NCBI GenBank assembly: GCA_041694835.1
Contig: JBGFRZ010000032.1
Span: 57-64,056, forward strand
Length of the DNA stretch: 64,000 nucleotides
Direction of reading: 5' to 3'
Source of the DNA: Ignavibacteria bacterium
GTDB lineage: Bacteria; Elusimicrobiota; Endomicrobiia; PHAN01
Below the pieces are notes generated by a model that saw only the letters and a program-made list of their open reading frames with translations, searched no databases and was not told the DNA's origin. Shown piece by piece: positions 5,236 to 58,928 of the stretch. How positions within the stretch are numbered: position 1 is the stretch's first letter; the number at the start of each line of letters is the position of its first letter. Position numbers and translations under genes: made by a program.

Positions 5236-7734
5236 TCACTCCTGCCATTCTTTAATTTTTGCCGAATACTCTTCCATGAGTTTTACAGAATCTTTTTCGC
5301 TCCTTGTTTCTACCCAGAGATGAAAATAACTTTCATCGGCATCGGGAAGCATGAGCGCCCATCCCTCTTCAAGCAAGAGCTTGACCCCATCGATAAGTTC
5401 ATGTTTTTTGTCCTTGGCAAAGTCGATGGCCCTCCTCATCACCGTCCCTTTTTTATCCCACGGACACGGTATCTTTTCATGGTAAATTTTAAACGAGGGT
5501 ATTTCTCTTGAGAGATGGTTGAGTCGGTCTCCGTTCGACGAGAGCATCTCTATAATTTTGCCAAGAGCGTAAAGGGCGTCAAAAGCACACTGGAATTCCG
5601 GGAAGATGTATCCTCCGTATGTGTTTCCAGCAAGGACAACGTCTTCTTTGTGGGCGGAATTTACTATGTTTTTGTTCGAAACAGAAGTTCTTTTTATCGT
5701 AATGTTATAGTTGGCCGCTAGTTCCTCTATAACCAACGAGGCGTTGACGGGAACGGCGATAACTCCGCTCTTATAGGTTTTCATTGCAAGCAATGCCACT
5801 AATATCATCGCGAAATCGTTCGGAAGTATTTTCCCTTTTTCATCGACTATGAAAAGCCTCTCCGCCCCGTTGTCAATCATGAAACCCACGTCGGCGTTTA
5901 AAGTTGTGACTATGTCGGAAAGTTGTTCAAGATATTTGCGCCGTTCTTCGCGCGATATGGAAACCTTGAGCGGGTTGATGTAGGAATTGAGTGCTATAAC
6001 CTCTACGCCGAGTTTTCCAAAAATACCCGGAAAAATCAAAGCGGCGGTCGAGTATGCGTAATCAAGAACGACTTTCATATCGGCCTTCGACATGATACCC
6101 ATTTTGATGGATTTCAGATAGCCAGTCCTGTAATATTCGGCCGCGCGGGGGGGAACTATCACCTCGTCTATCTCGTCGGGTGGTGACCTTTTGAAATCCT
6201 CCCTTAAAAAAAGCTGTTCTATCGCCTTTTCCTGATGGATAGATATCTCATCACCCTTTTCGTCGAAAAACTTTATGTCCATAACCTTCGGGTCCTTGGG
6301 TGATATCTTGACATGGACGCCGCCAGCTTCTCCTTCCTTTCCTATTTCGTATCTGAAAACCGGAAGAGGGGCGGTCTGGAGATCTCCGACTTTGACTCCG
6401 GCCGAAAGAAGTCCCGATATGAAAGTTCTCTTTATCATCCTGCTGGCCGGATGTGAGTCTCGGGAAGTTATCACGTATCTCCCCTTGCCTACATACGCCC
6501 CGTACGCCGAACCTACTTTCGCTGCGAACTCCGGCGTTATCTCGATATTCGCCAGTCCTGAAATCCCCCATGTGCCGAACAAAGCCTTGTGCCATACTTC
6601 ACCCCAGACAAGACTTGTCGAAAGTGTAGAGCCATCTTCAACAACTTTGTGAGGCCATATCTTCACGCCCGCCCTTATAGTTGCGCCGTCACCTATTTTG
6701 CATTCGTCGCTTATTACAGTACCAACCTGAATTACCGCCCTGTTGCCGACCGACACGTTGTACCCGATCACCGCTTCCTTTATGCGGGAGTTTTGTCCCA
6801 CCTGAGAATACGACCATATTACGGAACCCGAAATTACACTTCCTGATTTTATCGCTACATTGTCGCCTATAACGCTTTTAGAGAGTTTGACGCCGCTTTC
6901 AATTATGCAGTTTTTCCCTATTATGCAGGGAGTATCTATCTCGGCGTCCTTTGAGATTTTCGTATTCTCGCCAACTATGAACTCTGAATTTTTGAGTTTT
7001 ATTTTTCTCCCTTTTATCCCAACCGTGACCTTTGCGTCGAGGATGTCGTAATGCCCCAGGCGATATTCGTCGAGGTTGCCGACATCTTTCCAGTATCCGC
7101 TTGCGACGTGTCCGTAGAGCTCTTTGTCGTCGGAAAGTAATCGCGGAAAGAGGTCCTTTGAAAAATCGAAGTTTTTCTGCTCCGGTATGTATTCGAAGAC
7201 GGTCGGCTCAAGTATGTAGATGCCGGTATTTATCGTATCCGAAAAGACCTCGCCCCAGGAAGGTTTTTCCAGAAACCTTTCGATTTTGCCGTCCTGATTT
7301 GTGATGACCACACCGTAGGCGAGAGGATTTTCAACTCTCGTCAATACGATTGTCGCCGAGGCTTTTTTCTCTTCGTGCTCCTTCATCGCCGCCGTTAAAT
7401 CGAAATCGGTCAAAACATCGCCCGAAATAACGAGGAATCTCTCGGTTAAATATTTCTCCGTGAATTTCACGCAGCCGGCAGTGCCGAGATCGCTGTCGGG
7501 TTTCAGATAGCTTATCTTTATGTCAAAGGAGCTCCCGTCGCCGAAATGATTGGTTATGACCTCGGGCTGATAGAAAAGGAGCATTATGAGCTCTGAGAAA
7601 CCATGTGATTTCAAGAGTTCCACTATATGCTCAAGCATCGGAACGTTAGCCATCGGAACCATCGGTTTGGGAATGTTGGTCGAAAGTGGCCTCAGACGAG
7701 TGCCGAATCCACCTGCCATTATCACCGCTTTCAT
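5236..7734 (-). CDS. Bifunctional sugar-1-phosphate nucleotidyltransferase (mannose-1-P guanylyltransferase-like) / phosphohexomutase fusion
   Basis: N-terminal MAGGFGTRLRPLS nucleotidyltransferase motif, left-handed beta-helix hexapeptide repeats, C-terminal phosphomutase domain (TSRDSHPASRM). Confidence 0.75.
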   Translation of the reverse strand: MKAVIMAGGFGTRLRPLSTNIPKPMVPMANVPMLEHIVELLKSHGFSELIMLLFYQPEVITNHFGDGSSFDIKISYLKPDSDLGTAGCVKFTEKYLTERFLVISGDVLTDFDLTAAMKEHEEKKASATIVLTRVENPLAYGVVITNQDGKIERFLEKPSWGEVFSDTINTGIYILEPTVFEYIPEQKNFDFSKDLFPRLLSDDKELYGHVASGYWKDVGNLDEYRLGHYDILDAKVTVGIKGRKIKLKNSEFIVGENTKISKDAEIDTPCIIGKNCIIESGVKLSKSVIGDNVAIKSGSVISGSVIWSYSQVGQNSRIKEAVIGYNVSVGNRAVIQVGTVISDECKIGDGATIRAGVKIWPHKVVEDGSTLSTSLVWGEVWHKALFGTWGISGLANIEITPEFAAKVGSAYGAYVGKGRYVITSRDSHPASRMIKRTFISGLLSAGVKVGDLQTAPLPVFRYEIGKEGEAGGVHVKISPKDPKVMDIKFFDEKGDEISIHQEKAIEQLFLREDFKRSPPDEIDEVIVPPRAAEYYRTGYLKSIKMGIMSKADMKVVLDYAYSTAALIFPGIFGKLGVEVIALNSYINPLKVSISREERRKYLEQLSDIVTTLNADVGFMIDNGAERLFIVDEKGKILPNDFAMILVALLAMKTYKSGVIAVPVNASLVIEELAANYNITIKRTSVSNKNIVNSAHKEDVVLAGNTYGGYIFPEFQCAFDALYALGKIIEMLSSNGDRLNHLSREIPSFKIYHEKIPCPWDKKGTVMRRAIDFAKDKKHELIDGVKLLLEEGWALMLPDADESYFHLWVETRSEKDSVKLMEEYSAKIKEWQE

Positions 7735-23420: not shown

Positions 23421-23606
23421 AAATAGAGGATAGAGATGAGAGAACAGAGGTGATAGTTCAAGAGTTGAGAGTTTAGAGTGTAGAGTTGAGAGATGTCGCC
23501 GGGTATCTCTAAACTCTAAACTAAGTTCTCTAAACTTGTCCTCTCGTCTCTGACCCTTGTCCCCTGACCTCTGACCTCTGTCCTCTGCTGCTCTTGTGCA
23601 CTATCA
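23421..23606. repeat. Low-complexity purine/pyrimidine dyad element A
   Basis: Purine arm AATAGAGGATAGAGATGAGAGAACAGAGG..., centre GTCGCCGGG, pyrimidine arm ...CCTCTGACCTCTGTCCTCTGCTGCTCTTGTGCAC. Confidence 0.7.
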
Positions 23607-30061: not shown

Positions 30062-31507
30062 TCATTTTGCCAGTTCTGTTTTTGCTTCCGAAATATCCAC
30101 TCCGGTATTTTCATATTTTCTGATTATCCTTCTTAAGATATCTTTTTTTTCTCTTTCCGAAATACCGCGGTCCTTCAGTTGATAATAATATCGCATTGAA
30201 GTGTCGAACTCAATCTTTCTGTTGTCGATATCGGATTTTGCCGTAGAAATTCTCGGCGCTTTCTTTTCAACCGAAATTTCACGAGGCGGAATATATTCCA
30301 CAGCCGGCGACCTTTCCGCTTTCGGTTCTTCCTTTTCTTTTTCAGACGCAAGTAGTGATTCTAGTTCTTTCTTTAATCTGTCTTTCTCGTTCTCCAACCT
30401 CTCTACTTCTTTCAGGAGTTTTTCATTCTGGGACTTTTCCGTGAACAATTTTTCACTCAACTCTTTTAGTTTTTTGCTTTCGGGCGGTTTTCCGAATCTC
30501 ATATTAAGTGAAATCCTCTGAATGTCTCCGGAGTTCTTTATCCCAACCAAAGGGAATATATAAGAATAATTGAATCCAAACCATTTGAGTGAATGGCCGA
30601 AACCGACAGCAAACCTTCTCAGTTCCCTGCTTCCAAATGTCATGCCGCATCTTATGGCCGTTGCTCCATATTCTCCGAAATCAAAATGCCTTTCAGCCCC
30701 GAATGAAAACACATAGTCTAAGATGTTATTCGAGTACTCCTGAGCTGAAAAATCAGCGGAGAGATTTATCAGGGTCGTGTTCATTGCAAAGCCAATCGTT
30801 GATTTCATTTTTTTCGTGTCACCCGAGTTTTCAAACGACATATCCGGCTGATTGATGTCCTTGATAGAGAGCCCGATTTTGTAGTTTTCAGAGATGTTAT
30901 ACAAGATACCGGCATCCAGAGAGAAGAGCGTCTTCGACTTCCCAGTGAGATGGTCGGTTATGCCCCGTTTTGCTTTGCCAGTTTCATCCACGGAATTAAA
31001 GGAATAATCATCGGTTCCGATAGATTTTCTTAAAATTTTAGCAGTCAATCCGAAAACAATTTTTTTATATATTCCCGAGAGTGAAAAAGCGTAAGTCTCA
31101 TCCTTGTAGAACTCTCCGCCCAATAAAAAATATCCGAAAGCTGGCACATAACCCTTGTAAGGCAGCCCCGCCGCCAAATATACTTCCGACAATTTAGAGC
31201 CATCGGTTAATTTTGGATAAAGCGTTGTATAGGATGTGAATATCTCCGATGTTTTTATATTGTAAAGGCCGGCCGGGTTGTAGAAAATCGACTCGATGTC
31301 ATCCCCTGAAGCAACATAAGTCCCGCATACCCCGGAAGATCGGGAAGCATAAAGACAGGGGATAGTGAATAGCGAATAGCATATAGCGAATAGAGAATAG
31401 AGAATAGAGAATAGAGGATAGAGATTAGAGGTTAGGAAATGGAAATTATTACTCCTCTCCCTATCCGCTCGTCTATCTTCTCTCATCTCCGACCTCTGTC
31501 CTCTCAT
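30062..31507 (-). CDS. Putative outer-membrane beta-barrel protein (NPAGL-type N-terminal motif) with a C-terminal charged coiled-coil extension; start codon uncertain
   Basis: IFYNPAGL motif; beta-barrel-like middle; about 150-aa K/E-rich C-terminus. The first 50 or so codons are read through repeat element C and there is no in-frame ATG or GTG after the repeat. Confidence 0.45.
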   Translation of the reverse strand: MRGQRSEMREDRRADRERSNNFHFLTSNLYPLFSILYSLFAICYSLFTIPCLYASRSSGVCGTYVASGDDIESIFYNPAGLYNIKTSEIFTSYTTLYPKLTDGSKLSEVYLAAGLPYKGYVPAFGYFLLGGEFYKDETYAFSLSGIYKKIVFGLTAKILRKSIGTDDYSFNSVDETGKAKRGITDHLTGKSKTLFSLDAGILYNISENYKIGLSIKDINQPDMSFENSGDTKKMKSTIGFAMNTTLINLSADFSAQEYSNNILDYVFSFGAERHFDFGEYGATAIRCGMTFGSRELRRFAVGFGHSLKWFGFNYSYIFPLVGIKNSGDIQRISLNMRFGKPPESKKLKELSEKLFTEKSQNEKLLKEVERLENEKDRLKKELESLLASEKEKEEPKAERSPAVEYIPPREISVEKKAPRISTAKSDIDNRKIEFDTSMRYYYQLKDRGISEREKKDILRRIIRKYENTGVDISEAKTELAK

Positions 31508-31520
31508 CTCTGACCTCTCA
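31359..31520. repeat. Low-complexity purine/pyrimidine dyad element C
   Basis: GATAGTGAATAGCGAATAGCATATAGCGAATAGAGAATAGAG...GAGGTTAGGAAATGGAAATT...CTCTCATCTCCGACCTCTGTCCTCTCATCTCTGACCTCTCA. Confidence 0.7.
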
Positions 31521-31535
31521 CATTAGTACCCTCTT

Positions 31536-34500
31536 TCATCTTGATACCGTCACAGTTCCGTTTATTACTTTGTCGTCGGATTCAATCTGATAGATATAAA
31601 TTCCCGAGGGCACTTTGTTTCCGAATTCGTCGTCGCCATCCCACCTTAAAGATGTTTCACGGTTTGGTCCCCTTTTATTCAGTTTTTTGACAAACCGCCC
31701 CATTTTGTCGAATATAAATCCGACGACTCTTTCTTCAATTCCCGGCGGGCCGTCAAAATTTATAATCAAAAAATCATTTTTATTGTCGCCGTTCGGGGTT
31801 ATTATTTTCGGATAAACGTCATCTTTTCCTACCGAGAATGTTGAGCGATTCGTTAGTTTTAGTTGAAATTTTCCCAGAACTGACGCTGCCACTGAAATCG
31901 TCTTGTTGAATCTGTCGACGGCACCACCGAATCTGATCCATCTCACTCCGTTGAACCAGTAAACGGCATACTCGCTTTCATAAGAACCCGGGGACATCAC
32001 CGCAGAACCCCTGTCAAAGTAAGTAAACGATATATTGAAAGTTTGTTCTTTTGGAACATTTTTTTCTTTATTTGATTTTATATCCCGAAGTGCTACAACA
32101 AAAGATTTTACCACGCGGCCGATTTTTTCCTCAGGCACTTCTGTAATCCTGAGCACTGAGTTCTCAGGCAAAATGGCCGATGTCTCAACAAACAAGTCTT
32201 TATTGTCGCTCATTACTATTATAACCGGCGCAGTCTTCGATGCCACTATTGCCGACGGCAGGCTTTCGTTTGAATATATATCCACAGCCTTTATCGTGTA
32301 ATAATAAACGTTTTTTTTTGTGTCTTGAGAAAATTCGTTCGACTTTAACGGAAGCATCGTTATTTTTTCGTATATCCCATCCATCGAAGTGCTCCTGTAA
32401 ACAAGATAACCGTCGATGTCGTAAATCGGGCTCAGGTCCTCGTTGTATTTAACTTCATCCCAAAATATTTGAAAAATCCCGCCCGAAAAACTCCCGCGAA
32501 CTCCGGTGGGAGCAAGTGGGGGCATTTTATCGACGACCTTATCGGTCATAACGTTGACAATATCAGTAGGGGCGGTTATTATTCCGTCGCCATTGAAGCC
32601 ATATAGACGGTAGTAGTATGTGGTGGAATGGCTCAAATTTCCATCGGTATAAGTTGAAGAAGAACCAGATATATTGTCGCTTACAACTGAAAAAAATAAG
32701 CCGTCAAGGGATCTCTCGAGTCTAAACTTGCTGGAGCCGCCCGTCGGAGATTGCCAGGAGAGCGTAATTGAATTTTTTGTTTTGGCTATACTCCCCAAAT
32801 TTCCGGGCGGATTGGCCAGGGTGTATTTTGAAACTACCGATGAACCGAATGAAACGCCGCTTGCATTCCCCGCTTTGATATATCTTGAATATTGTGTATT
32901 GGGTTCTAAACCGATTTCGTTCCAAGATATTGTTTCGTTTCCTTCAAGATTTTTCAACAGATGATTATCACCGGCTCTATAAATCTGATAATATGTCGCA
33001 GATGATGTTATCTCCCATGTCCAGTTGATCGCCACCGTGCTAACGGCTACCCCGCGAAAACCCAACGGCTCTGAAGGAATTGCCGGAAGTGTGATAGTTG
33101 AGATTGTTGTATCATATATCGTGGGTATACCCTCGCTATTGAACGCCTGAACCTTGTAGTAATATGTAGTCGCAGGCTCTAACCCTGCCGAGTCAGTAAA
33201 TGTTGTGCCCGTTTGGTTGTTTGCAAATGAGCTCAAGGTAAAGGTAGAGGTGAAGAAGTTATTCGTTGAGCGCAATACTCCCCATCTGGTTGATGCCGGA
33301 TTTCCGTTATTGCTCCATGTGATTTCTATTGAATGTGAAGTCCTCTTTAAAACATAACTATCAACGGGTGGCATCGCCATGGTATATCTTGAAGCGACGT
33401 TGGATGAAGATATTGATACGCTATTATATGCCGCCACATACCTGCTATAATTAGTATTAGCGGAAAAATTAGTTTCAAGCCAGATCGTCGTTCCGTGCGG
33501 CAACTCTGATAGCAATGCGTTTGTGGAACTAAATATCCTGAAACCATCTTCGTCAGGGGAGTTGTCTTTCCATGACCATAAAATCGAACCTGTCGACAAA
33601 ACCATGCCGCTAAACTCCGAAGGAGCGGATGGAACTCCGATGGGGCGGGTTGAAACGACGGAGGAAAAGGCACTTATAAAAATCTGCGGTGGAGCATCGT
33701 AAGAGTTCATCTTGTAAAAATATGTCGTTCCGTTGGTGACAGAGGTATCAACATAAGTATTGCTACGCGTAGTTCCTATAAGGGAATAGGTATTTCCGTC
33801 GGTTGAACGGTGAATTTCGTAGTAATCGAAGTCAAGATAACCGAGCTGCCCGAGCATATCATTCCAAAAAAGCTCAACCAACCCGCTTGAAGCCACTGAT
33901 TTGAGCCCGGTTGGAGGAGCGGGAACAATATCAAGGGCATAGCTGAACGCCTGTGTGAGCGACACAGTCGGCTCATCGATGGGAGAGATATTTCCGTCGG
34001 CGTCTTTTGATTTAATTGAAAAATAATATGTTGAAGAAGGGAAAAGACCGGAAATTCCGGTAATCTCTTCGGAGCCTGGAGATTGGGGGGACGGTGTATT
34101 ATTAAGCGAAGTGGCGACACTCCACCATGCAGTGGTATCTCCCAAAAGTGAGTTTATGGAAAACGTGGCGTATTTTATGATGTACTCTGAAACTTTCTTG
34201 TTCTGAGGAATATCTCCGGGGGCAATCCATGAGAGTTTGATCTCCCCTTCGCTCGCCCCTGTTACAGCAACAATGGATGTAACCGCTCTCGGCGGATAAA
34301 TATCCGCGATATAGTGTGAATTTTCATCCGACCATACGCTCTTCAACAAGCCCGAATCTATTGAAGCAACTGAAAAATAATATGTCGTTCTTATGGCAAG
34401 TTTTTTTATCAATATACTGTTAGTCGTGCCGATTCTTTTGGGCCTCGGATAGTTTCCCGAAAACGGTGTCGCCCATTGCGGACTCACGACATAACTTGAA

Positions 34501-36581
34501 GGGTTTATGCTGAAGGGGGCCGTCGCCATCCTGACAAGATAGTTGAGTGACTGCTGAGGTGTTTTATCATCGGAACCGTCTTGAAAAGATATGACCAGAT
34601 TTTCGTCGATATATTCTGCGATTGGCCCTGGCGGAGCTGATGGCGCAGCGTTGATTTTACCTGAATCTCTGTATGTGTTTTTGTAAATTCTTATCAAATT
34701 CGAAATGCCCGAAGACGGCGACCCCGAAACGACGAGATCCAGATCCCCATCGTTGTCTATGTCGCCGAAAACGACCGATGAGAGCTGGAGACCGAGATTC
34801 TGACCAAGAATCTCCTGGTCGGAATAAAACGTTCCGGAAGAATTCTTAAACAATATAAATCTCAAAAGACCGTTATTGTCCCTCCCTGTCACAACAATAT
34901 CCGGCCATCCGTCGGTGTTGTAATCGCCGAAGGCAAGCGAGCTATTGTCAACACCTGCAGCCAAACCCATTGGCTCCTGGTCGAGGCTAAAAACACCGTT
35001 TGTATTCTTAAAAAGAATAAGCCGTCTACCAGATGCTGTTCCATCAATTGTTCCGCTTACCGCTATATCCAGATCGCCGTCGAGGTCGTAGTCGCAAAAA
35101 GCCACAGAGCCGTTCTCAAGACCGATATTGACACCTAAGGGTTCTTGGTCGATTAAAAAAGTTCCGGAAGAATTCCTAAATAAAATGAATCTCCTGTTGC
35201 CTGTCGTATCTCTGCCTATGGCAGCAAGGTCAACCCATCCATCTTTGTTGTAGTCGCCGACGGACAGTGCCGAGTTGGAAAGCCCTGTCAAATCAAAACG
35301 CATCGTAAAACTTGAATTGTTGTTCTCATACACCCTTAAGTATCTGTTGTTGGGCAAACTACCAGGTCCGATGCCGCTTACGACAATGTCGTTGTCACCG
35401 TCATTGTCGAAATCCATCAAAACAACACACCCCATGACAAATCCGTCGGCGGAACCCATTGGTTCGCTGTCCAGAACAAACGGTGGAGTGCCGGAGGTGT
35501 TTCTGTAAACAAAAAATCTCCTGGTTGAGCCGTCAGGTGAACCGACCGCGATCTTGTCATCTTTACCGTCGGAATTTATGTCGCCGAAATAGAGGGAACT
35601 AGCCTGAAGGCCGACGGGAAATTCCTGCCACAACGAAAAATTTCCGACAGAATTTCTGTATATAACGTTTTTTCTGCTCACACCATCAAAGCCGCTGACA
35701 GCCAAATCTATGTAGCCGTCTGTGTCTATATCCGAAAAAGAAAAGCCGTTTTCGCTCGACAAAACATCACGAAGCCCCTCGAATGTTTGTGAGAGAAAAA
35801 AAGACGACGATACTGCAGTCGCCGTAGATGACCAGTTTGACTGGTTAGAGTTTTCGTCGAATGCAGATATCCATATATAGTGGGTGGCCGACGGGAGGAG
35901 CGAGGTGAGCATGAAGACATGGCTTGTGGCTGGTGAAAAATTCGATGATATAGAGATTTGATAAGTCGCTGTTTGCGGTGTGTCGGAAGGATTCGTTGAA
36001 TATCTTATTAAAAATCCGCCGCCGACTACCGAGCCGTTGTAAACATCATCGCCGGGAGCCGTCCATGTAAGTAAAATCTGGGCGGACAGCGTCGCCGAAA
36101 GATTCGTGATCTGCCCGGGAGGCAGTAAATCCCTCTGCGCCCAAGATGTAGCGGCATTAGAGATTGGAGAAAAGTTGGCAGGCGGAGATGATGTCCAAAT
36201 TCTGAAAAAGTATGTCGCCCCGCCGGTCAAACCGGTTATTGTGTGGCTTTGCGGCGCGCCGGAATTAACATTTGATGTGGATATTCTTATTTGCGCCGAA
36301 GCGGTTGACCAAACAACGTCGGAATCCTGCGAATGCTGTATGAAATATGTCGAACCAACAGGGAGGGAAGATGGACCGGGATACATCCATCCCAACACAA
36401 CCCCGCCTTCGGACTGCCCCCGGGTGGCGTTTAGATTTGTAACGGGGGACGGCTGGGCCGAAAGATAAAAAGGCCCCGCTATTAAAAAAAAGACAATTAG
36501 CGCTCCGTGACAAAAATAAAAAGCCCCCGCAAACCCGCGGTGGCTTGTAGATAAATGACTGACAAAATTAATTTTTATCAT
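31536..36581 (-). CDS. Large (1681-aa) secreted FG-GAP/fibronectin-III repeat protein with a T9SS type-B (CHU_C / gliding-motility-associated) C-terminal sorting domain
   Basis: At least six DxDxDGxxD FG-GAP calcium-binding repeats (e.g. FGDINSDGKDDKIAVG, GDIDNDGDLDLVVSG); Fn3-like segments; C-terminus ITPNGDNKNDFLIINF...LRWDGDDEFGNKVPSGIYIYQI typical of type-B sorting domains. Confidence 0.75.
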   Translation of the reverse strand: MIKINFVSHLSTSHRGFAGAFYFCHGALIVFFLIAGPFYLSAQPSPVTNLNATRGQSEGGVVLGWMYPGPSSLPVGSTYFIQHSQDSDVVWSTASAQIRISTSNVNSGAPQSHTITGLTGGATYFFRIWTSSPPANFSPISNAATSWAQRDLLPPGQITNLSATLSAQILLTWTAPGDDVYNGSVVGGGFLIRYSTNPSDTPQTATYQISISSNFSPATSHVFMLTSLLPSATHYIWISAFDENSNQSNWSSTATAVSSSFFLSQTFEGLRDVLSSENGFSFSDIDTDGYIDLAVSGFDGVSRKNVIYRNSVGNFSLWQEFPVGLQASSLYFGDINSDGKDDKIAVGSPDGSTRRFFVYRNTSGTPPFVLDSEPMGSADGFVMGCVVLMDFDNDGDNDIVVSGIGPGSLPNNRYLRVYENNNSSFTMRFDLTGLSNSALSVGDYNKDGWVDLAAIGRDTTGNRRFILFRNSSGTFLIDQEPLGVNIGLENGSVAFCDYDLDGDLDIAVSGTIDGTASGRRLILFKNTNGVFSLDQEPMGLAAGVDNSSLAFGDYNTDGWPDIVVTGRDNNGLLRFILFKNSSGTFYSDQEILGQNLGLQLSSVVFGDIDNDGDLDLVVSGSPSSGISNLIRIYKNTYRDSGKINAAPSAPPGPIAEYIDENLVISFQDGSDDKTPQQSLNYLVRMATAPFSINPSSYVVSPQWATPFSGNYPRPKRIGTTNSILIKKLAIRTTYYFSVASIDSGLLKSVWSDENSHYIADIYPPRAVTSIVAVTGASEGEIKLSWIAPGDIPQNKKVSEYIIKYATFSINSLLGDTTAWWSVATSLNNTPSPQSPGSEEITGISGLFPSSTYYFSIKSKDADGNISPIDEPTVSLTQAFSYALDIVPAPPTGLKSVASSGLVELFWNDMLGQLGYLDFDYYEIHRSTDGNTYSLIGTTRSNTYVDTSVTNGTTYFYKMNSYDAPPQIFISAFSSVVSTRPIGVPSAPSEFSGMVLSTGSILWSWKDNSPDEDGFRIFSSTNALLSELPHGTTIWLETNFSANTNYSRYVAAYNSVSISSSNVASRYTMAMPPVDSYVLKRTSHSIEITWSNNGNPASTRWGVLRSTNNFFTSTFTLSSFANNQTGTTFTDSAGLEPATTYYYKVQAFNSEGIPTIYDTTISTITLPAIPSEPLGFRGVAVSTVAINWTWEITSSATYYQIYRAGDNHLLKNLEGNETISWNEIGLEPNTQYSRYIKAGNASGVSFGSSVVSKYTLANPPGNLGSIAKTKNSITLSWQSPTGGSSKFRLERSLDGLFFSVVSDNISGSSSTYTDGNLSHSTTYYYRLYGFNGDGIITAPTDIVNVMTDKVVDKMPPLAPTGVRGSFSGGIFQIFWDEVKYNEDLSPIYDIDGYLVYRSTSMDGIYEKITMLPLKSNEFSQDTKKNVYYYTIKAVDIYSNESLPSAIVASKTAPVIIVMSDNKDLFVETSAILPENSVLRITEVPEEKIGRVVKSFVVALRDIKSNKEKNVPKEQTFNISFTYFDRGSAVMSPGSYESEYAVYWFNGVRWIRFGGAVDRFNKTISVAASVLGKFQLKLTNRSTFSVGKDDVYPKIITPNGDNKNDFLIINFDGPPGIEERVVGFIFDKMGRFVKKLNKRGPNRETSLRWDGDDEFGNKVPSGIYIYQIESDDKVINGTVTVSR

Positions 36582-36758
36582 TGTTTCGGTAGCCCAGCCG
36601 GCATCCGTTCAAACCCGAACCCCGTCGCCTTTCAACGACGGATTGTCCCATAACGCGGGATTTAGCCCTGTTGGCTTTGCGTCCCCCGGTTTCCCGGCAT
36701 CCCGACACAAAATCGGAACGTTCCCATATGACCAGCAGGGAAGGTTTGCCTTTGTCGC

Positions 36759-36946
36759 TATAATGAGATTATTGAAAAACCCATCTTTTTCACTTAAAGG
36801 GCAGTTTCTTAACGGTTAAAAGTTTCAATCAGACCGCAAAACTCCTCGCTTTGCTCGTCAGACATTGCGGTCTAAACGATTTCAACTTTTAACCTGAAAC
36901 TGCCAAATCGTTCAAAAGATTAAGGTTTTTCAACGAGCTCATAATA
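36759..36946. mobile_element. Roughly 190-bp imperfect-palindrome element, copy 2
   Basis: Differs from copy 1 at only a few positions; terminal repeats TATAATGAGATTATTGAAAAACC ... GGTTTTTCAACGAGCTCATAATA. Confidence 0.65.
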
Positions 36947-39672: not shown

Positions 39673-41515
39673 TCTCTGCGTCTATAGAAACACTAACCGA
39701 ATAATTCCTTGAGCTCCGAACAGCAGAAATAATTTTCGAAAAATCGCCGTTTCCCTTCAAAATTATTTTCCAGAGATACCGCTTCCTTAATTTCTTCCGA
39801 TAATCACTTGATGGACCGACGATTTCCGCCTCTAAGTTGTTTTCGTTTAATATCTTTTCCATGAGAGTGGACGTTTTTTCGGCGTATAACTTGGCCAACT
39901 TATCATTTTTGCTCCTGAAGGTCAGCGTTATCAGACGGGCGTAAGGAGGGTATTTGAGTTTTTTTCTTTGTTTCAACTCTTCGGAATAAAACTCCTCATA
40001 ATTTAATTTGAAGGGGTAGTAATCCGGGAAGTGGGTTTCGACATAGAGCTCGGGCTCTTCGGCTTTCTTTGATAAAAGTTCGCTATAATCCGCCATCTTC
40101 AAAAATATTTTTTCATTGGAAAAATACTCCGGATGCATGAAATCGAAATCCGCATTCAATAAAATGACAAGTCCTATATCAGACGACACCATATAATGCC
40201 TGGGAGGATGTGTGGCGATGATGAAATCGGCTGATAACGACTCTTTATTTTTATTGCTTTTGTATGAATTCCTGGCGTCGAGATCGTAACGGGTTATAGT
40301 CGCACACGGATAAAGCTGTCTTAAGGACTCCTCGATTTTTTGCGTTCCAAAAGAAAGAGCGGTAAGATTCCGAGAGCCGCAGATATTGCATAATGGGGCA
40401 TAGACGATCTGTCTGCCACAGTAGTTGCATCGGAGTATTTTTTCTTTCCCGGCGATGTAGAGCGTGAGGGGTATGTCGCAGTCTTCGCATTTCAAAATCC
40501 TTTTGCATGAGCCGCAGTAGTATCCCCCGGAAAAACCTTTCAGCGGATAGTGTATAAGCGTGGTAAGCTTTTTGATGTAATTTCTGTCGATACTTTCCTT
40601 TAAAATTGAGATAATGTCATAATTCCTGCTCTTATATTTTTTAACGATTTCCCAATGATTTTTTTTATACGCATCGGGAGGTTTTTCCGTCAACTTTTTC
40701 ACGCCGCCTTCTTTGATTTTGGAATAGATGTCGACTGAGAACGCGGATCCTCCGAAAATAACTCTTATCTTATATCGCTCCGATTTTTTGAGCGCCACGT
40801 TTCTTGTGTTGTAATAAGGGCGCCGTCCATCCTTGTGGGCGTAGTCGTACTCTCTGTCAACAATTATGGTCCCGAGGTTGTTGAGTGGCAAAAACACGCT
40901 TCTTCTTGTGCCTATCACAAAACTGCATTCGTTCAAGAGTAGTTTTTCGAATGTTTCCGATTGCATTTTTTTTGATAAATCCGAACTCCAGACAACGGGC
41001 TCGAATCTGGCGTAATAATTTTTCGCCCAAACAACATCCGAAAGCGTTGGTAGAACAAGAAGCACGCTTTTTTTTGCGCTGAGCCCATCTGATATTTCTT
41101 TTTTGTAAAAATCATATCTTTCATCGTTCCCGAGGAATGCGGCGAAAAGAGTACTTTTGTCTTTTCCATTATTTATCTCTGGATTTTTTGATGCGGTTTT
41201 TATGTGTTTAAAATCAATCGGATATATCAGATTCAACACCGCGCCAACGGAAACAAAGTAATGCTCGCTCAAGGCATTTGCGAATGCGAGGGCTTTTTCG
41301 TCAATAACCGGGGTTTCGTCCACTGATGAGATTACTTCCTTTAATTGATGCTTAAGATGAGGTTCTTTTTTGCCAACATCGACGACATATCCAAGGCGGG
41401 ACGTGCTTCCGAAAGGGACATTCACCCTTGAACCGACAGATAGATTTATGCTCACAGGGACAGCATAATCAAACTCTCCGTCGGGAGGCTTTGGAAATAC
41501 TACTTTTGCAAACAT
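39662..41515 (-). CDS. PriA-like protein with degenerate ATPase motifs (primosomal protein N' homolog lacking Walker A/B and the arginine finger)
   Basis: PriA-type N-terminal 3'-DNA-binding domain (FDYAVP...RVNVPFG), motif Ia LLVLPTL, PriA Cys-rich zinc module (CGSC...CEDC...CNYC...CNIC); Walker A position reads GNDER, DEEH reads DREY, the GRAGR region is absent. Confidence 0.65.
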   Translation of the reverse strand: MFAKVVFPKPPDGEFDYAVPVSINLSVGSRVNVPFGSTSRLGYVVDVGKKEPHLKHQLKEVISSVDETPVIDEKALAFANALSEHYFVSVGAVLNLIYPIDFKHIKTASKNPEINNGKDKSTLFAAFLGNDERYDFYKKEISDGLSAKKSVLLVLPTLSDVVWAKNYYARFEPVVWSSDLSKKMQSETFEKLLLNECSFVIGTRRSVFLPLNNLGTIIVDREYDYAHKDGRRPYYNTRNVALKKSERYKIRVIFGGSAFSVDIYSKIKEGGVKKLTEKPPDAYKKNHWEIVKKYKSRNYDIISILKESIDRNYIKKLTTLIHYPLKGFSGGYYCGSCKRILKCEDCDIPLTLYIAGKEKILRCNYCGRQIVYAPLCNICGSRNLTALSFGTQKIEESLRQLYPCATITRYDLDARNSYKSNKNKESLSADFIIATHPPRHYMVSSDIGLVILLNADFDFMHPEYFSNEKIFLKMADYSELLSKKAEEPELYVETHFPDYYPFKLNYEEFYSEELKQRKKLKYPPYARLITLTFRSKNDKLAKLYAEKTSTLMEKILNENNLEAEIVGPSSDYRKKLRKRYLWKIILKGNGDFSKIISAVRSSRNYSVSVSIDAESAA

Positions 41516-41520
41516 ATTTC

Positions 41521-41565
41521 GCTATTTGCTATTTGCTATTCGCTATTCGCTATCTATAGCGCGAC
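41521..41565. repeat. Short low-complexity element D (GCTATTTGCTATTTGCTATTCGCTATTCGCTATCTATAGCG)
   Basis: CTATTCGCTATTC unit shared with elements C, E and G; supplies the last codons and the TAG stop of the SpoIID-like gene. Confidence 0.5.
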
Positions 41566-42984: not shown

Positions 42985-43005
42985 AATTTTAGCGGCGAAG
43001 GCAGA

Positions 43006-43250
43006 AGTGCACAAGAGCGCAAGAGCACAAGTCAGAGGACAGAGTTCAGGGAACAGAGAACAGAGGTCAGAGGCTAGAGGCGAGGGACAAGAGGTTAGGG
43101 AATGGAAATTTTTATTCAATTTCTTGTCCCCTATCCTCTATTCTCTATACGCTATTCTCTCACCTCTGACCTCTCACCTCTCATCTCTCATCTCTATCCT
43201 CTATTCACTATTCGCTATTCGCTGTCCTACAGTCTCTAATCTCTGCTGCT
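43006..43250. repeat. Low-complexity purine/pyrimidine dyad element E
   Basis: GCACAAGAGCGCAAGAGCACAAGTCAGAGGACAGAG...GGTTAGGGAATGGAAATTTTTATTC...TCACCTCTGACCTCTCACCTCTCATCTC...CTATTCACTATTCGCTATTCGC; the central GGAAATGGAAATT motif is shared with element C. Confidence 0.7.
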
Positions 43251-43808
43251 TTTTTGTTCTACCCGTTTACCTCTCTCTCCCTTGTCGCTTTCCTGTCTGC
43301 TGAATATGCATCCGCAGTATTTCTGACTGTAGAGCCCAAGTTTTTTTATCTTCTCTTTTGCTTCGCGGTATTTCTTCCTCACATCGACATAAATAAATTC
43401 AACATTCCATTTTTGCGAAAGAGTCTCCGCTATTCCTCTTATTAAATCGTGCTTTTGATAAGGACTTGCAAGAAGTGTCGTCGAAAAGCAGTCGAATATT
43501 TTGTCGCCTCTAAAGCAACGTCTCGCCGTTTCTTCGAGTCGGTTTATATAACAATACTTGCATCTATCAGCCGAAGCTTTCGCCGCATCAAGCCACTTTT
43601 CCATGCTATGAGCCGGGATATTTATAGATGAGATTCCTTTAAGGGCGTTGAATTTTTCAAGGGCGTCAAAACGGAGATATGATTCCTGTTCGGGGTGTAT
43701 GTTCGGATTATACCATAAACCGTAGACATCAAAATCCATCTCTATTCGCTCCAGCATCGGAGCGGTGCAGATAGCACAACACTGATGAAGCAAAAGTTTC
43801 TTTCTCAC
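43236..43808 (-). CDS. queH: Epoxyqueuosine reductase QueH (DUF208)
   Basis: LLLHQCCAICT N-terminal Cys cluster, YVDVRK..GLY..KYCGC; GTG start; last 5 or so codons run into element E. Confidence 0.8.
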   Translation of the reverse strand: MRKKLLLHQCCAICTAPMLERIEMDFDVYGLWYNPNIHPEQESYLRFDALEKFNALKGISSINIPAHSMEKWLDAAKASADRCKYCYINRLEETARRCFRGDKIFDCFSTTLLASPYQKHDLIRGIAETLSQKWNVEFIYVDVRKKYREAKEKIKKLGLYSQKYCGCIFSRQESDKGERGKRVEQKSSRD

Positions 43809-54251: not shown

Positions 54252-54270
54252 TTTACCACCTGATATTGAT

Positions 54271-54377
54271 GCACAAGGCACAAGAGCATAAGTCAAGAGC
54301 ATAAGTGCACAAGAGCACAGTAAAAACCTCACCTCTCATCTCTATGCTCTATCTTCTATTCACTATTTGTTATTTGC
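54271..54377. repeat. Low-complexity element F (GCACAAGAGCATAAG module followed by TCACCTCTCATCTCTAT and CTATTCACTATTTG modules)
   Basis: Shares modules with elements A, E, G and H. Confidence 0.6.
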
Positions 54378-56241: not shown

Positions 56242-56340
56242 AAGAACTCCAATTCCCCGCCTTGACAGGAACACCGTCCACATGGACTCCAATGCCATTG
56301 AATACGGAGTCCGCAGCGGCTGGGGAAATCTGGAACCATA

Positions 56341-56550
56341 GAGCACAAGAACACAAGTCAGAGGTCAGAGGTGAGAGATGAGAGAATAGCGTATAGAGGA
56401 TAGAGGATAGCAAATAGCAAATAGCGAATAGTGGTTGGTGACTGGTGACTTGTGGCTGGAGGAAATGAGCAACGAGCCACGAGCCACTAATCCTCTGTCC
56501 TCTGTCCTCTGTCCTCTGTTCTCTGTCCCCTGTTCTCTGCTCTCGGCGGT
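56341..56550. repeat. Low-complexity purine/pyrimidine dyad element G
   Basis: GAGCACAAGAACACAAGTCAGAGGTCAGAGGTGAGAGATGAGAGAATAGCG...GGATAGCAAATAGCAAATAGCGAATAG...CCTCTGTCCTCTGTCCTCTGTCC. Confidence 0.7.
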
Positions 56551-56568
56551 AATATTTTTCATTCGATG

Positions 56569-57585
56569 TTATATCCTGATCGGCACGCCTCTCTTTTTGA
56601 GGTAAAGTTTTAATTCTTTTATGCCGATTTCTCTAAAGTGAAAAAGAGAGGCGGCGAGGCATGCCGAAGCTTTAGCCTCCGCGAAACCCTCGTAAAAATC
56701 TCCTTTTGAACCGGCTCCGCCCGAAGCTATGACTGGTATCGAGACTGCCTCAACCACGGATTTCGTCAGTTCGATATCATAACCGTCTTTTGTGCCGTCC
56801 TTGTCCATACTCGTGAGTAAAATCTCGCCCGCTCCCATTTTTTCAACGTATCTCGCCCATCTCACAACATCTAATCCAGTATTCTTTCTTCCGCCGTAAG
56901 TATAAACCTCCCATCTTAATCGAGAGGTGAGAGGTGAGAGGTCAGAGGTCAGAGATGAGAGGTGAGTTTTTTCTCTGTCCCCCGTTCTCTGTTCTCTGTT
57001 CTCTGTCTTCTGTCCCCTGTCCTCTGTCCTCTGTTCTCTGTCCTCTGTCCTCTGTCCTCTGTTTTCTGTCCTCTGCTGCTCTTGTGCACTTGTGCTCTTG
57101 TGCACTTGTGCTCTGCCACTCTGTTCTCTGTCCTCTGTCCTCTGTTCTCTGTCTTCTGTCCTCTGTCCTCTGTTCTCCGCTCTCTGTCTTTTTGCGTCAA
57201 TTGCTATGACTATGCATTGGCTCCCAAACTTTTTTGCCGCTCCTTTTATGAAATCCGGATTTTCTACGGCGGAGGTGTTGATTGAAACTTTGTCGGCGCC
57301 GTTGGCCAGAAGCGTCTGAATATCTTTTAAATTTCTTACCCCGCCTCCAACGGTAAGTGGTATGAAGACGCTTTGCGCCGTTTTTTTTACGACATTTAAA
57401 AGTATCTTTCTTTTTTCGCAAGATGCGGTTATGTCGAGAAAAACAAGCTCGTCGGCGCTTTCTTTGTCGTACTTCTTTGCGACTTCAACAGGGTCGCCCG
57501 CGTCCCTCAAATTCAAAAACCTCGTTCCCTTTACGACGCGACCGGCATTTACGTCCAAACAAGGAATTATTCTTTTAGTAAGCAT
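56569..57585 (-). CDS. hisF: Imidazole glycerol phosphate synthase cyclase subunit HisF carrying an in-frame insertion of about 91 aa low-complexity sequence
   Basis: N-terminal residues 1-133 and C-terminal residues 225-338 are a complete HisF (RIIPCLDV...AIDAKR // [13 protein letters not shown]...IASGGAG). The intervening [23 protein letters not shown]... stretch is encoded by repeat element H. Confidence 0.85.
56921..57192. repeat. Low-complexity element H, inserted in-frame inside hisF
   Basis: GAGAGGTGAGAGGTCAGAGG purine block followed by about 230 nt of (CTCTGTCCTCTGTTCTCTGT)n plus a CTCTTGTGCACTTGTGCTCTTGTGCAC module; all three forward frames are open. Confidence 0.75.
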
Positions 57586-58308: not shown

Positions 58309-58928
58309 ATTTTCTCGATAAAATTCCTGATCAGTTTCAAACCCAACGAACCGCTTTTTTCAGGATGAAACTGACAAGCGAATATATTCTCCTTGTAAAC
58401 CGCCGAACAAAACTTTGCACCGTAATCCGTCGTAGATGCGATAATACTTTTATCCTCCGGTTCCACATAATACGAGTGAACGAAATAAAAATAAGAATCA
58501 TCCTGTATTCCTTCGGAAACTTTGAACTTTGAACTTTGAACTTTGAACTTTATCTGGTTCCATCCCATATGAGGCACGAGCATTTTTGTTTCGTCGAACT
58601 TCCTTGAAAAACCCTTAAATATCCCAAGACCATTGCTTTTTCCTTCCTCACTTTTTTCGAAAAGGAGCTGAAGACCCAAACAAATGCCGAAAAAAGGTTT
58701 TTTTTCAATTATCCGCGGGAGACCTTCCCAGATACCCCTTTTTTTCAAGTTTCTTACCGCAACGTCAAACGACCCCACGCCTGGAAGCACGACGCAGTCG
58801 GCAGGGCTTATTTTTTTCATGCTGCCCGTAACTCCAACCCTCGCTCCAGATTTTTCAAAAGCTTTCGCCACACTCTGAAGATTCCCCATGCCATAGTCAA
58901 TGACGCAAACATTTATCGTGTTTCGCAT
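58302..58928 (-). CDS. hisH: Imidazole glycerol phosphate synthase glutamine amidotransferase subunit
   Basis: VIDYGMGNLQSVAKAFE, GICLGLQLL, HPEKS triad motifs. Confidence 0.9.
   Translation of the reverse strand: MRNTINVCVIDYGMGNLQSVAKAFEKSGARVGVTGSMKKISPADCVVLPGVGSFDVAVRNLKKRGIWEGLPRIIEKKPFFGICLGLQLLFEKSEEGKSNGLGIFKGFSRKFDETKMLVPHMGWNQIKFKVQSSKFKVSEGIQDDSYFYFVHSYYVEPEDKSIIASTTDYGAKFCSAVYKENIFACQFHPEKSGSLGLKLIRNFIEKIC

Follow-up and report, generated by a model that had tools for sequence, protein, structure and literature searches.

The hisF gene in the window, by which we mean the whole 64,000-nucleotide stretch of DNA analysed here, carries an array of seven-nucleotide units that lengthens HisF by more than a third and leaves the reading frame intact. 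We propose that this array is probably a tolerated passenger, translated and disordered, lodged in the one turn of HisF that permits insertions and deletions and held in frame by selection on the enzyme. Since 7 nt is not a multiple of three, such units would be expected to stay out of essential coding sequence, and our search of the open-access literature turned up no account of heptamer arrays lying in frame in HisF or in the phyla concerned.

The array and the enzyme that carries it

The gene lies in an operon of the order hisH-hisA-hisF-hisI, in synteny with the Elusimicrobia relative L002. Its product scored 380.2 bits against the NCBIfam profile TIGR00735 (cut-off 294.55) over profile positions 1-254 of 254, and in a PDB search its residues 1-133 and 225-338 covered residues 1-133 and 138-251 of HisF-LUCA. 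These full-length alignments agree with the first-pass annotation, made from the letters alone, which had taken the two segments together for a complete HisF separated by a low-complexity, in-frame insert of about 91 residues. The insert comprises residues 134-224 (273 nt), so that a native turn of about four residues between the motifs AIDAKR and WEVYT becomes 91 residues, an exact length that is uncertain given that the array comes from a short-read metagenome assembly. The interval first given for it, 56914-57192, was right as to location but included two native codons, and the insert ends at 57186 instead. The nearest HisF proteins belong to Elusimicrobia metagenome-assembled genomes with flanks 75-79% identical to those of the window protein, and no close relative was found among 5.8 billion proteins, the nearest having 79% identical flanks. 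Together with the synteny, these best hits suggest an Elusimicrobia-like host.

Apart from the insert, the (beta/alpha)8 barrel is most likely normal and HisF still active, judging from sequence conservation and the predicted structure. At the 107 alignment columns where 22 homologues show no variation, D11 and D130 among them, the window protein does not deviate, and in Foldseek comparisons the target-normalised TM scores to 1THF, 1GPW, and 4EVZ were 0.91-0.96. The AF2 model gives the barrel a pLDDT of 87-98 and places the insert, at 44-52, between strand beta5 (residues 125-133) and a strand at residues 225-229; the charged, low-complexity loop of 91 residues is thus probably disordered. Homologue alignment and mapping onto a structure, both of which had been recommended with the expectation of a surface loop, put the insertion point in the surface turn of the beta-hairpin that follows beta5. 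In HisF, the C-terminal face of the barrel bears the active site, and the opposite face is the docking surface for HisH. Because the insert starts three residues after the catalytic D130, it would project from the catalytic face, and as the longest loop seen at this place it could conceivably affect catalysis.

The insert consists of about 30 heptanucleotide units and an 8-mer module (Table 1). Tandem Repeats Finder (TRF) reported a period of 7 with 30 copies at 56973-57188 (score 203), GAGAGGT with 6.4 copies at 56922-56966, and the 8-mer module at 57077-57114, and GGACAGAGGACAGAG, with up to two mismatches allowed, occurs 29 times against 0.09 occurrences expected. The units are imperfect, with a longest perfect run in the hisF array of 3.9 units, and the peptide has a seven-residue period, QRTEDRG/E. 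The first-pass annotation had described the insert as open in all three forward frames. This holds for the purine-rich part of about 225 nt, which contains only four T, but not for the pyrimidine-rich arm, where TGA occurs in both other sense frames, and the whole insert is open in the hisF frame only. A frameshift or stop within the insert, which had been named as evidence against a tolerated insertion, is absent: the length is a multiple of three and the hisF frame is free of stops.

Table 1. Features of hisF, its insert, and the related heptamer arrays of the 64-kb window
Feature	Positions	Strand	Description and basis
hisF CDS	56569..57585	(-)	338 codons + stop, 338 aa; TIGR00735 match
HisF residues 1-133	57187..57585	(-)	beta1 through beta5, with catalytic D11 and D130; structure alignments, invariant columns, AF2 strand 125-133
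Insert, codons 134-224	56914..57186	(-)	273 nt; 44% charged, 10% hydrophobic; pLDDT 44-52
Purine-rich heptamer block 1	57115..57186	(-)	CAGAGRA units on the coding strand; TRF, sequence
8-mer module GCACAAGT/GCACAAGA	57077..57114	(-)	TRF, alignment
Purine-rich heptamer block 2	56973..57076	(-)	GGACAGA/GAACAGA units, peptide QRTEDRG/E; TRF, sequence
A6 centre between the arms	56967..56972	(-)	T6 on the + strand; sequence
Pyrimidine-rich arm	56920..56966	(-)	CTCACCT/CTGACCT units on the coding strand, ~45-47 nt; TRF, sequence
HisF residues 225-338 + stop	56569..56913	(-)	WEVYT strand to the C-terminus; alignment, AF2
In-frame array in hisH	58518..58551	(-)	4.9 perfect AACTTTG units (KFKVQSSKFKV) in a variable loop; TRF, alignment
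Intergenic heptamer element, hisF-hisI spacer	56340..56550	.	sequence, alignment
Intergenic heptamer element	23423..23601	.	right end is a 20-mer common to the hisF insert; alignment, exact match
Intergenic heptamer element	31361..31521	.	alignment
Intergenic heptamer element between QueH and DUF2905 genes	43001..43259	.	alignment
Heptamer/8-mer element between trpE and trpG	54270..54377	.	overlaps the trpE stop; alignment

The insert belongs to a repeat family that is otherwise dispersed between genes, as had been proposed at first reading and as alignments, shared 12-mers, and an exact 20-mer now bear out. Within the window, its alignments and 12-mers match solely other heptamer elements, and six of these share them, including the five intergenic elements of Table 1; a seventh heptamer array (41515-41553) has no alignment or 12-mer in common with it. 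The 20-mer GTGCACAAGAGCAGCAGAGG matches exactly between 57070-57089 and 23582-23601 (0 expected by chance), block 1 and the arm of the spacer element at 56491-56544 agree at about 91% of positions over 54 nt, and a 75-nt stretch of the insert has 81% identity with the left end of the element at 43001-43259, made of the 8-mer module and heptamers. Intergenic copies have the 8-mer module at an outer end of the element. In hisF it lies mid-insert, and because a module that elsewhere marks the ends of elements sits in its middle, the insert would be a composite of at least two events.

The intergenic heptamer elements of the window all sit between co-directional genes, and with the insert they share one polarity, from purine- or G-rich units through an A/T-rich centre to pyrimidine- or C-rich units. 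The arms are built of different unit types (for example, 43031-43093 vs 43131-43228) that are complementary in a GAG/CTC skeleton only; in that element, at 43001-43259, the left arm has CAGAG units and the right arm CTATYCT/CTCAYCT units. The same order, often with an A5-6 centre, recurs in the loci L001, L004, L086, L087, L088, and L090, and the opposite order in L031 (16648-16758). A scan of 1.4 Mb of other loci gave three arrays of the same polarity and one of the opposite, too few paired arrays to inform. The hisF-hisI spacer, which holds one of the elements, is about 330 nt long in the window; hisF and hisI have a few bases in common in the relatives L002 and L088.

At two other places the elements reach into genes: an ATAG-type heptamer in the element between trpE and trpG provides the trpE stop codon TAG, and the last roughly 20 residues of QueH extend into the edge of the neighbouring element (region 43236-43300). 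The start of trpG, immediately downstream of the trpE-trpG element, contains a 12/12 match to a sigma-70-like promoter (54238-54210, minus strand; TTGACA-17 nt-TATAAT), which may be a chance occurrence. The array at 41515-41553 is reminiscent of the Beggiatoaceae TAACTGA repeats that lie just upstream of start codons. Elsewhere in the window, a c-di-GMP-I riboswitch (36585-36760, minus strand; 39.5 bits vs a gathering score of 35) is placed directly upstream of a 1681-aa open reading frame (31536..36581) with FG-GAP, fn3, and CHU_C (type IX secretion) domains.

The beta5 turn in other HisF proteins

Extra residues at this turn are common in HisF. Among the 120 best homologues, 73 carry at least three extra residues at the beta5 turn, and none carries as many at any other internal position, a comparison of related genes that had been recommended at first reading. 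Judging from these alignments, we take the turn of the beta5 hairpin to be the sole length-tolerant place in HisF. At the DNA level, 88 loci from several phyla were recovered by tblastn, independently of gene calling, and at every one of them the two halves of HisF are in the same frame with no intervening stop, across loops of 4-80 codons; the window loop, with its 91 codons, is the longest seen. Because the same loop is filled in many lineages and all 88 loci are in frame, this distribution suggests a permissive site on which selection acts as a filter. Such inserts occur in independent assemblies from NCBI, JGI, ENA, and Logan.

Many of the loops are heptamer arrays like that of the window. 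They occur in NC10 (L001), Elusimicrobia (L015, L090), Methylomirabilota (L029), and Nitrospirota (L036, L087), as well as at L086 and L088; several read at the DNA level as G-type units, A5-6, and C-type units, and the A5-6 centre in L086, L087, L088, and L090 resembles that of the window. An RTEDRGQ-type (GGACAGA-type) array even occupies the same site in a HisF only 64% identical to that of the window. Another group of Nitrospirota HisF proteins (L006-L014, L022, L032, L047, L057, and others) has a conserved 33-aa loop insert, ATGExWFxDxSLKDVxL, a protein-like segment without excess folding energy. In some Nitrospirota, a second REP-like perfect hairpin, ATCCCCCC...GGGGGGAT, is nested in the insert and yields the peptide IPPxPPLxKGGxGG. 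Compared with shuffled sequences, the RNA of the window insert folds with z = -3.5 and that of other repeat-derived inserts with -2 to -5.8.

The content of the loop turns over between near-identical alleles. Loops can be unrelated even in HisF pairs whose flanks are 96-100% identical: P0074 and P0087 share all 245 flank residues and have 18-residue loops without anything in common, P0029 and P0038 combine near-identical flanks with wholly different loops, and P0004 has a 24-residue heptamer insert where the 96% identical P0008 has none. The DNA of L086 matches that of L089 at about 90% identity as far as AAACGA and then once more from AGCTGGGAAGTC onward, and between these boundaries one has 75 nt of GAGTTGC/CGAACTC units and the other 45 nt of GAAGYCA units. 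Among an NC10 trio with flanks 98-99% identical, the loops differ by +14 and +28 aa, multiples of the 7 aa that correspond to three heptamers. On this evidence, the HisF loop behaves as a hypervariable minisatellite across several phyla. The identical boundaries around unrelated content, together with the array in the 64%-identical HisF, would be explained equally well by repeated site-specific insertion and by turnover in situ.

The pair L090 (filled) and L091 (empty), with about 91% DNA identity, gives the closest view of a young array. About 12 native nt, the codons C-D-K-N, are replaced by 63 nt, the array being (GTTCAGA)x4-G-A6-(CTACGAA)x4-CTG with perfect 4+4 units, and the comparison of filled and empty alleles revealed no target-site duplication. 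Were the right-arm unit a perfect complement of the left, a TGA would fall in frame within three units, and it is at exactly the two positions concerned that the right-arm unit departs from that complement.

Because in-frame arrays also occur in HemC (twice), in PrmC, at the N-terminus of HisG, and in HisH, HisF is not their sole target. They lie in two loops of hemC in L087 (17660-17740 and 18125-18190), in the inter-domain linker of prmC in L001 (1498-1593; GCCGAGA units, as in the HisF insert of that locus), and at the start of hisG in L086 (4790-4830), each with units common to the HisF inserts of their genomes. In the window, the hisH array lies between HMGWN and YFYFVHSY, the same place at which the hisH of L002 has ACAAATG/ACAAATT units (6978-7031). 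In the window, hisF and hisH, the genes for the two subunits of one enzyme, thus both carry heptamer arrays, and slippage of a single unit in hisH would be a frameshift. A search with the insert peptide returned mostly short hypothetical open reading frames over intergenic repeats, or the ends of reading frames that enter them, and added no host protein that has such an insert in its interior. The RTEDRGQ-type peptides of Leptospira inadai, Alkalispirochaeta, and an Olavius symbiont are spurious small reading frames over intergenic repeats, and their presence in such unrelated bacteria implies that the unit family is widespread.

Origin and persistence of the array

We propose that an array of the dispersed intergenic family came to sit in the beta-hairpin turn following beta5, and that it is transcribed and translated as part of HisF into a charged loop projecting from the barrel. 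At least two pieces would have been copied or recombined from dispersed arrays, followed by slipped-strand expansion and turnover of units. Selection on HisF would then act as a filter: surviving alleles would be those whose length changes by multiples of 3 nt, that is, in steps of three units (21 nt, 7 aa), and whose units are free of stops in the registers actually read. The open frame is accounted for by such a filter, and luck is not needed. This bears on both explanations offered by the first-pass annotation. The idea of a recent insertion that happens not to break the gene is unlikely as a general account, given the many lineages with inserts and the 88 of 88 loci in frame and stop-free. 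A tolerated surface-loop insertion of a mobile repeat fares better, in that the array is in frame, in a surface turn, in an apparently functional HisF, and of the intergenic family, but nothing observed speaks for mobility of a transposon-like kind: the window elements lack register-true terminal inverted repeats, no transposase was found in the 14 of about 48 window genes scanned, and the filled and empty pair shows no target-site duplication and differs by a replacement of codons.

Fixed boundaries around replaced content, the recurring polarity with its A-rich centre, and the perfect 4+4 allele would equally fit a site-specific or repeat-synthesising machinery, which we keep in mind as a minority possibility. 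In its broadest form, which we regard as unlikely though worth entertaining, heptamer palindromes would be an undescribed, cross-phylum class of elements with dedicated machinery, replacing each other at landing sites in essential genes; the tip of the HisF beta5 hairpin would be a conserved landing pad and the window array a composite of several events. Slightly less probable is site-specific homing, in which dedicated machinery repeatedly inserts or replaces heptamer palindromes at a fixed hisF site and a few others, with no passive survival in a permissive loop. Candidates for such homing would be a mobile element specific for structure or sequence, or templated repeat synthesis onto the two 3' ends of a break. 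The exact boundaries in L086 and L089, the different loops in proteins with fully identical flanks, the GGACAGA-type array at the same site in the 64%-identical HisF, the young allele of L090, and the recurrence of unit families across phyla are all consistent with homing, and so is the combination of a G-rich to A/T-rich to C-rich polarity with arms that are not register-true, as an independent extension of two break ends predicts. Against it stand the failure to find a transposase, target-site duplication, or conserved termini, the arrays at many other permissive places, both genic and intergenic, and the opposite polarity of L031, and the polarity shared within the window is not independent if its copies are one family. 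Moreover, selection on the flanking strands would give fixed boundaries too.

A function at the level of nucleic acid appears improbable to us. The insert might form a hairpin that modulates translation, decay, or processing in the his operon, or serve as an on/off switch of hisF (and hisH) by slippage, since a change of one unit shifts the frame; heptanucleotide repeats drive phase variation in some pathogens, according to literature cited in PMC4679880 and PMC2651432. The insert RNA is more stable than its shuffles (z = -3.5), and heptamer arrays occur in both hisF and hisH, the latter with 4.9 perfect units. Yet the arms pair only loosely, the purine arm being five times the length of its partner, and the longest perfect run in hisF is 3.9 units. 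With all 88 loci in frame, no off state was seen, and many close relatives have no insert at all. Neither an Rfam family nor a terminator-like excess speaks for it: at gathering and permissive thresholds, Rfam gave only sub-threshold matches of the insert to hairpin-shaped miRNA precursors, and a scan for promoters and terminators gave no excess over shuffles.

We are still more doubtful that the loop is an adaptive protein segment, whether an interaction surface, a solubility tag, or a regulator on the active-site face. Its place on the catalytic face, adjoining D130, would suit such a role, and the conserved, protein-like insert of 33 aa in Nitrospirota shows that the loop can host one, but the window sequence is of low complexity and modelled by AF2 with low confidence. 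In addition, nothing is kept between close relatives, whose content is swapped wholesale, and the same peptide arises from spurious reading frames over intergenic repeats in unrelated bacteria. An intein, an intron, or translational bypassing was rejected, as the open reading frame is continuous without an Rfam intron match, all 88 loci are in frame and free of stops, and the insert is of low complexity with no protein family match in PDB or NCBIfam. Very improbable, finally, is an assembly error or a decaying pseudogene backed by another copy of hisF, because, even though the array comes from a single metagenome-derived contig in one database and short reads assemble poorly over long tandem arrays, the gene is continuous with no deviation at the 107 invariant columns, the array is a multiple of three without a stop, and like inserts appear in the independent NCBI, JGI, ENA, and Logan assemblies.

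If the array is, as we favour, a tolerated passenger of the beta5 turn, it has a bearing beyond this gene. HisF is a favourite scaffold for protein engineering, and the loop marks a natural site that tolerates large insertions. The arrays show selection at work in their 21-nt steps and stop-free units, and the pairs of filled and empty or variant alleles offer material for the study of how bacterial heptamer repeats arise and spread.

Likeness to known repeat classes

Among known systems, we consider the closest in the way they work to be the in-frame Rickettsia palindromic elements (RPEs) and intragenic miniature inverted-repeat elements (MITEs) (PMC10969869), and the closest in composition to be the long simple sequence repeats (SSRs) of heptanucleotides in bacteria. 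Members of the REP/BIME class are G+C-rich perfect hairpins, 20-40 nt long, that bear a GTAG or CGTC head (PMC3733652). Direct reading of the window sequence showed no G+C-rich perfect hairpin of that length, and the secondary hairpins of Nitrospirota HisF inserts are closer to the class than the window insert is. With SSR contingency loci, the hisF array has in common a coding repeat whose unit is not a multiple of three, so that a change of one unit is a frameshift. However, contingency loci are long perfect runs in surface or virulence genes with both on and off states, whereas the hisF case consists of imperfect units in a biosynthetic gene with every copy seen in frame.

The heptanucleotide SSRs of bacteria (Mrazek et al. 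2007, as cited in PMC4679880 and PMC4692102) include the tandem heptanucleotides of cyanobacteria, GGGAATC of Xanthomonas, and TAACTGA of Beggiatoaceae, and polymerase slippage is proposed as their source in the accounts of PMC4679880 and PMC4692102. As described there, they too consist of 7-nt units in tandem, occur sporadically across phyla, and lie for the most part between genes, at times as inverted pairs. The published arrays are intergenic or at the ends of open reading frames, and insertions succeed mainly at the protein periphery (PMC4679880); in contrast, the hisF array places about 30 units in the middle of an essential enzyme and recurs in the same loop of many lineages.

Intragenic MITEs, such as ERIC, QMITE1 of Coxiella, and those of Anabaena, likewise are small non-coding repeats that give genes peptide segments, but MITEs have defined terminal inverted repeats, target-site duplications, and linkage to insertion sequences, which the heptamer elements, without terminal inverted repeats or duplication, do not match (PMC10969869, PMC5896051). 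RPEs, according to Ogata et al. (2000) as presented in PMC10969869, are dispersed palindrome-like repeats that occur in intergenic DNA and also, in frame, within housekeeping genes unrelated to one another, where translation turns them into an additional surface segment that the fold of the host protein accommodates. The heptamer elements resemble them in these respects. RPEs are described in PMC10969869 as elements of about 150 bp, conserved in sequence and peptide, in obligate intracellular Rickettsia, whereas elements of the window type are built of 7-nt units with loosely complementary arms, differ in content even where their host genes are nearly identical, and occur in genomes of Elusimicrobia-like, Nitrospirota, NC10, and delta-type bacteria.
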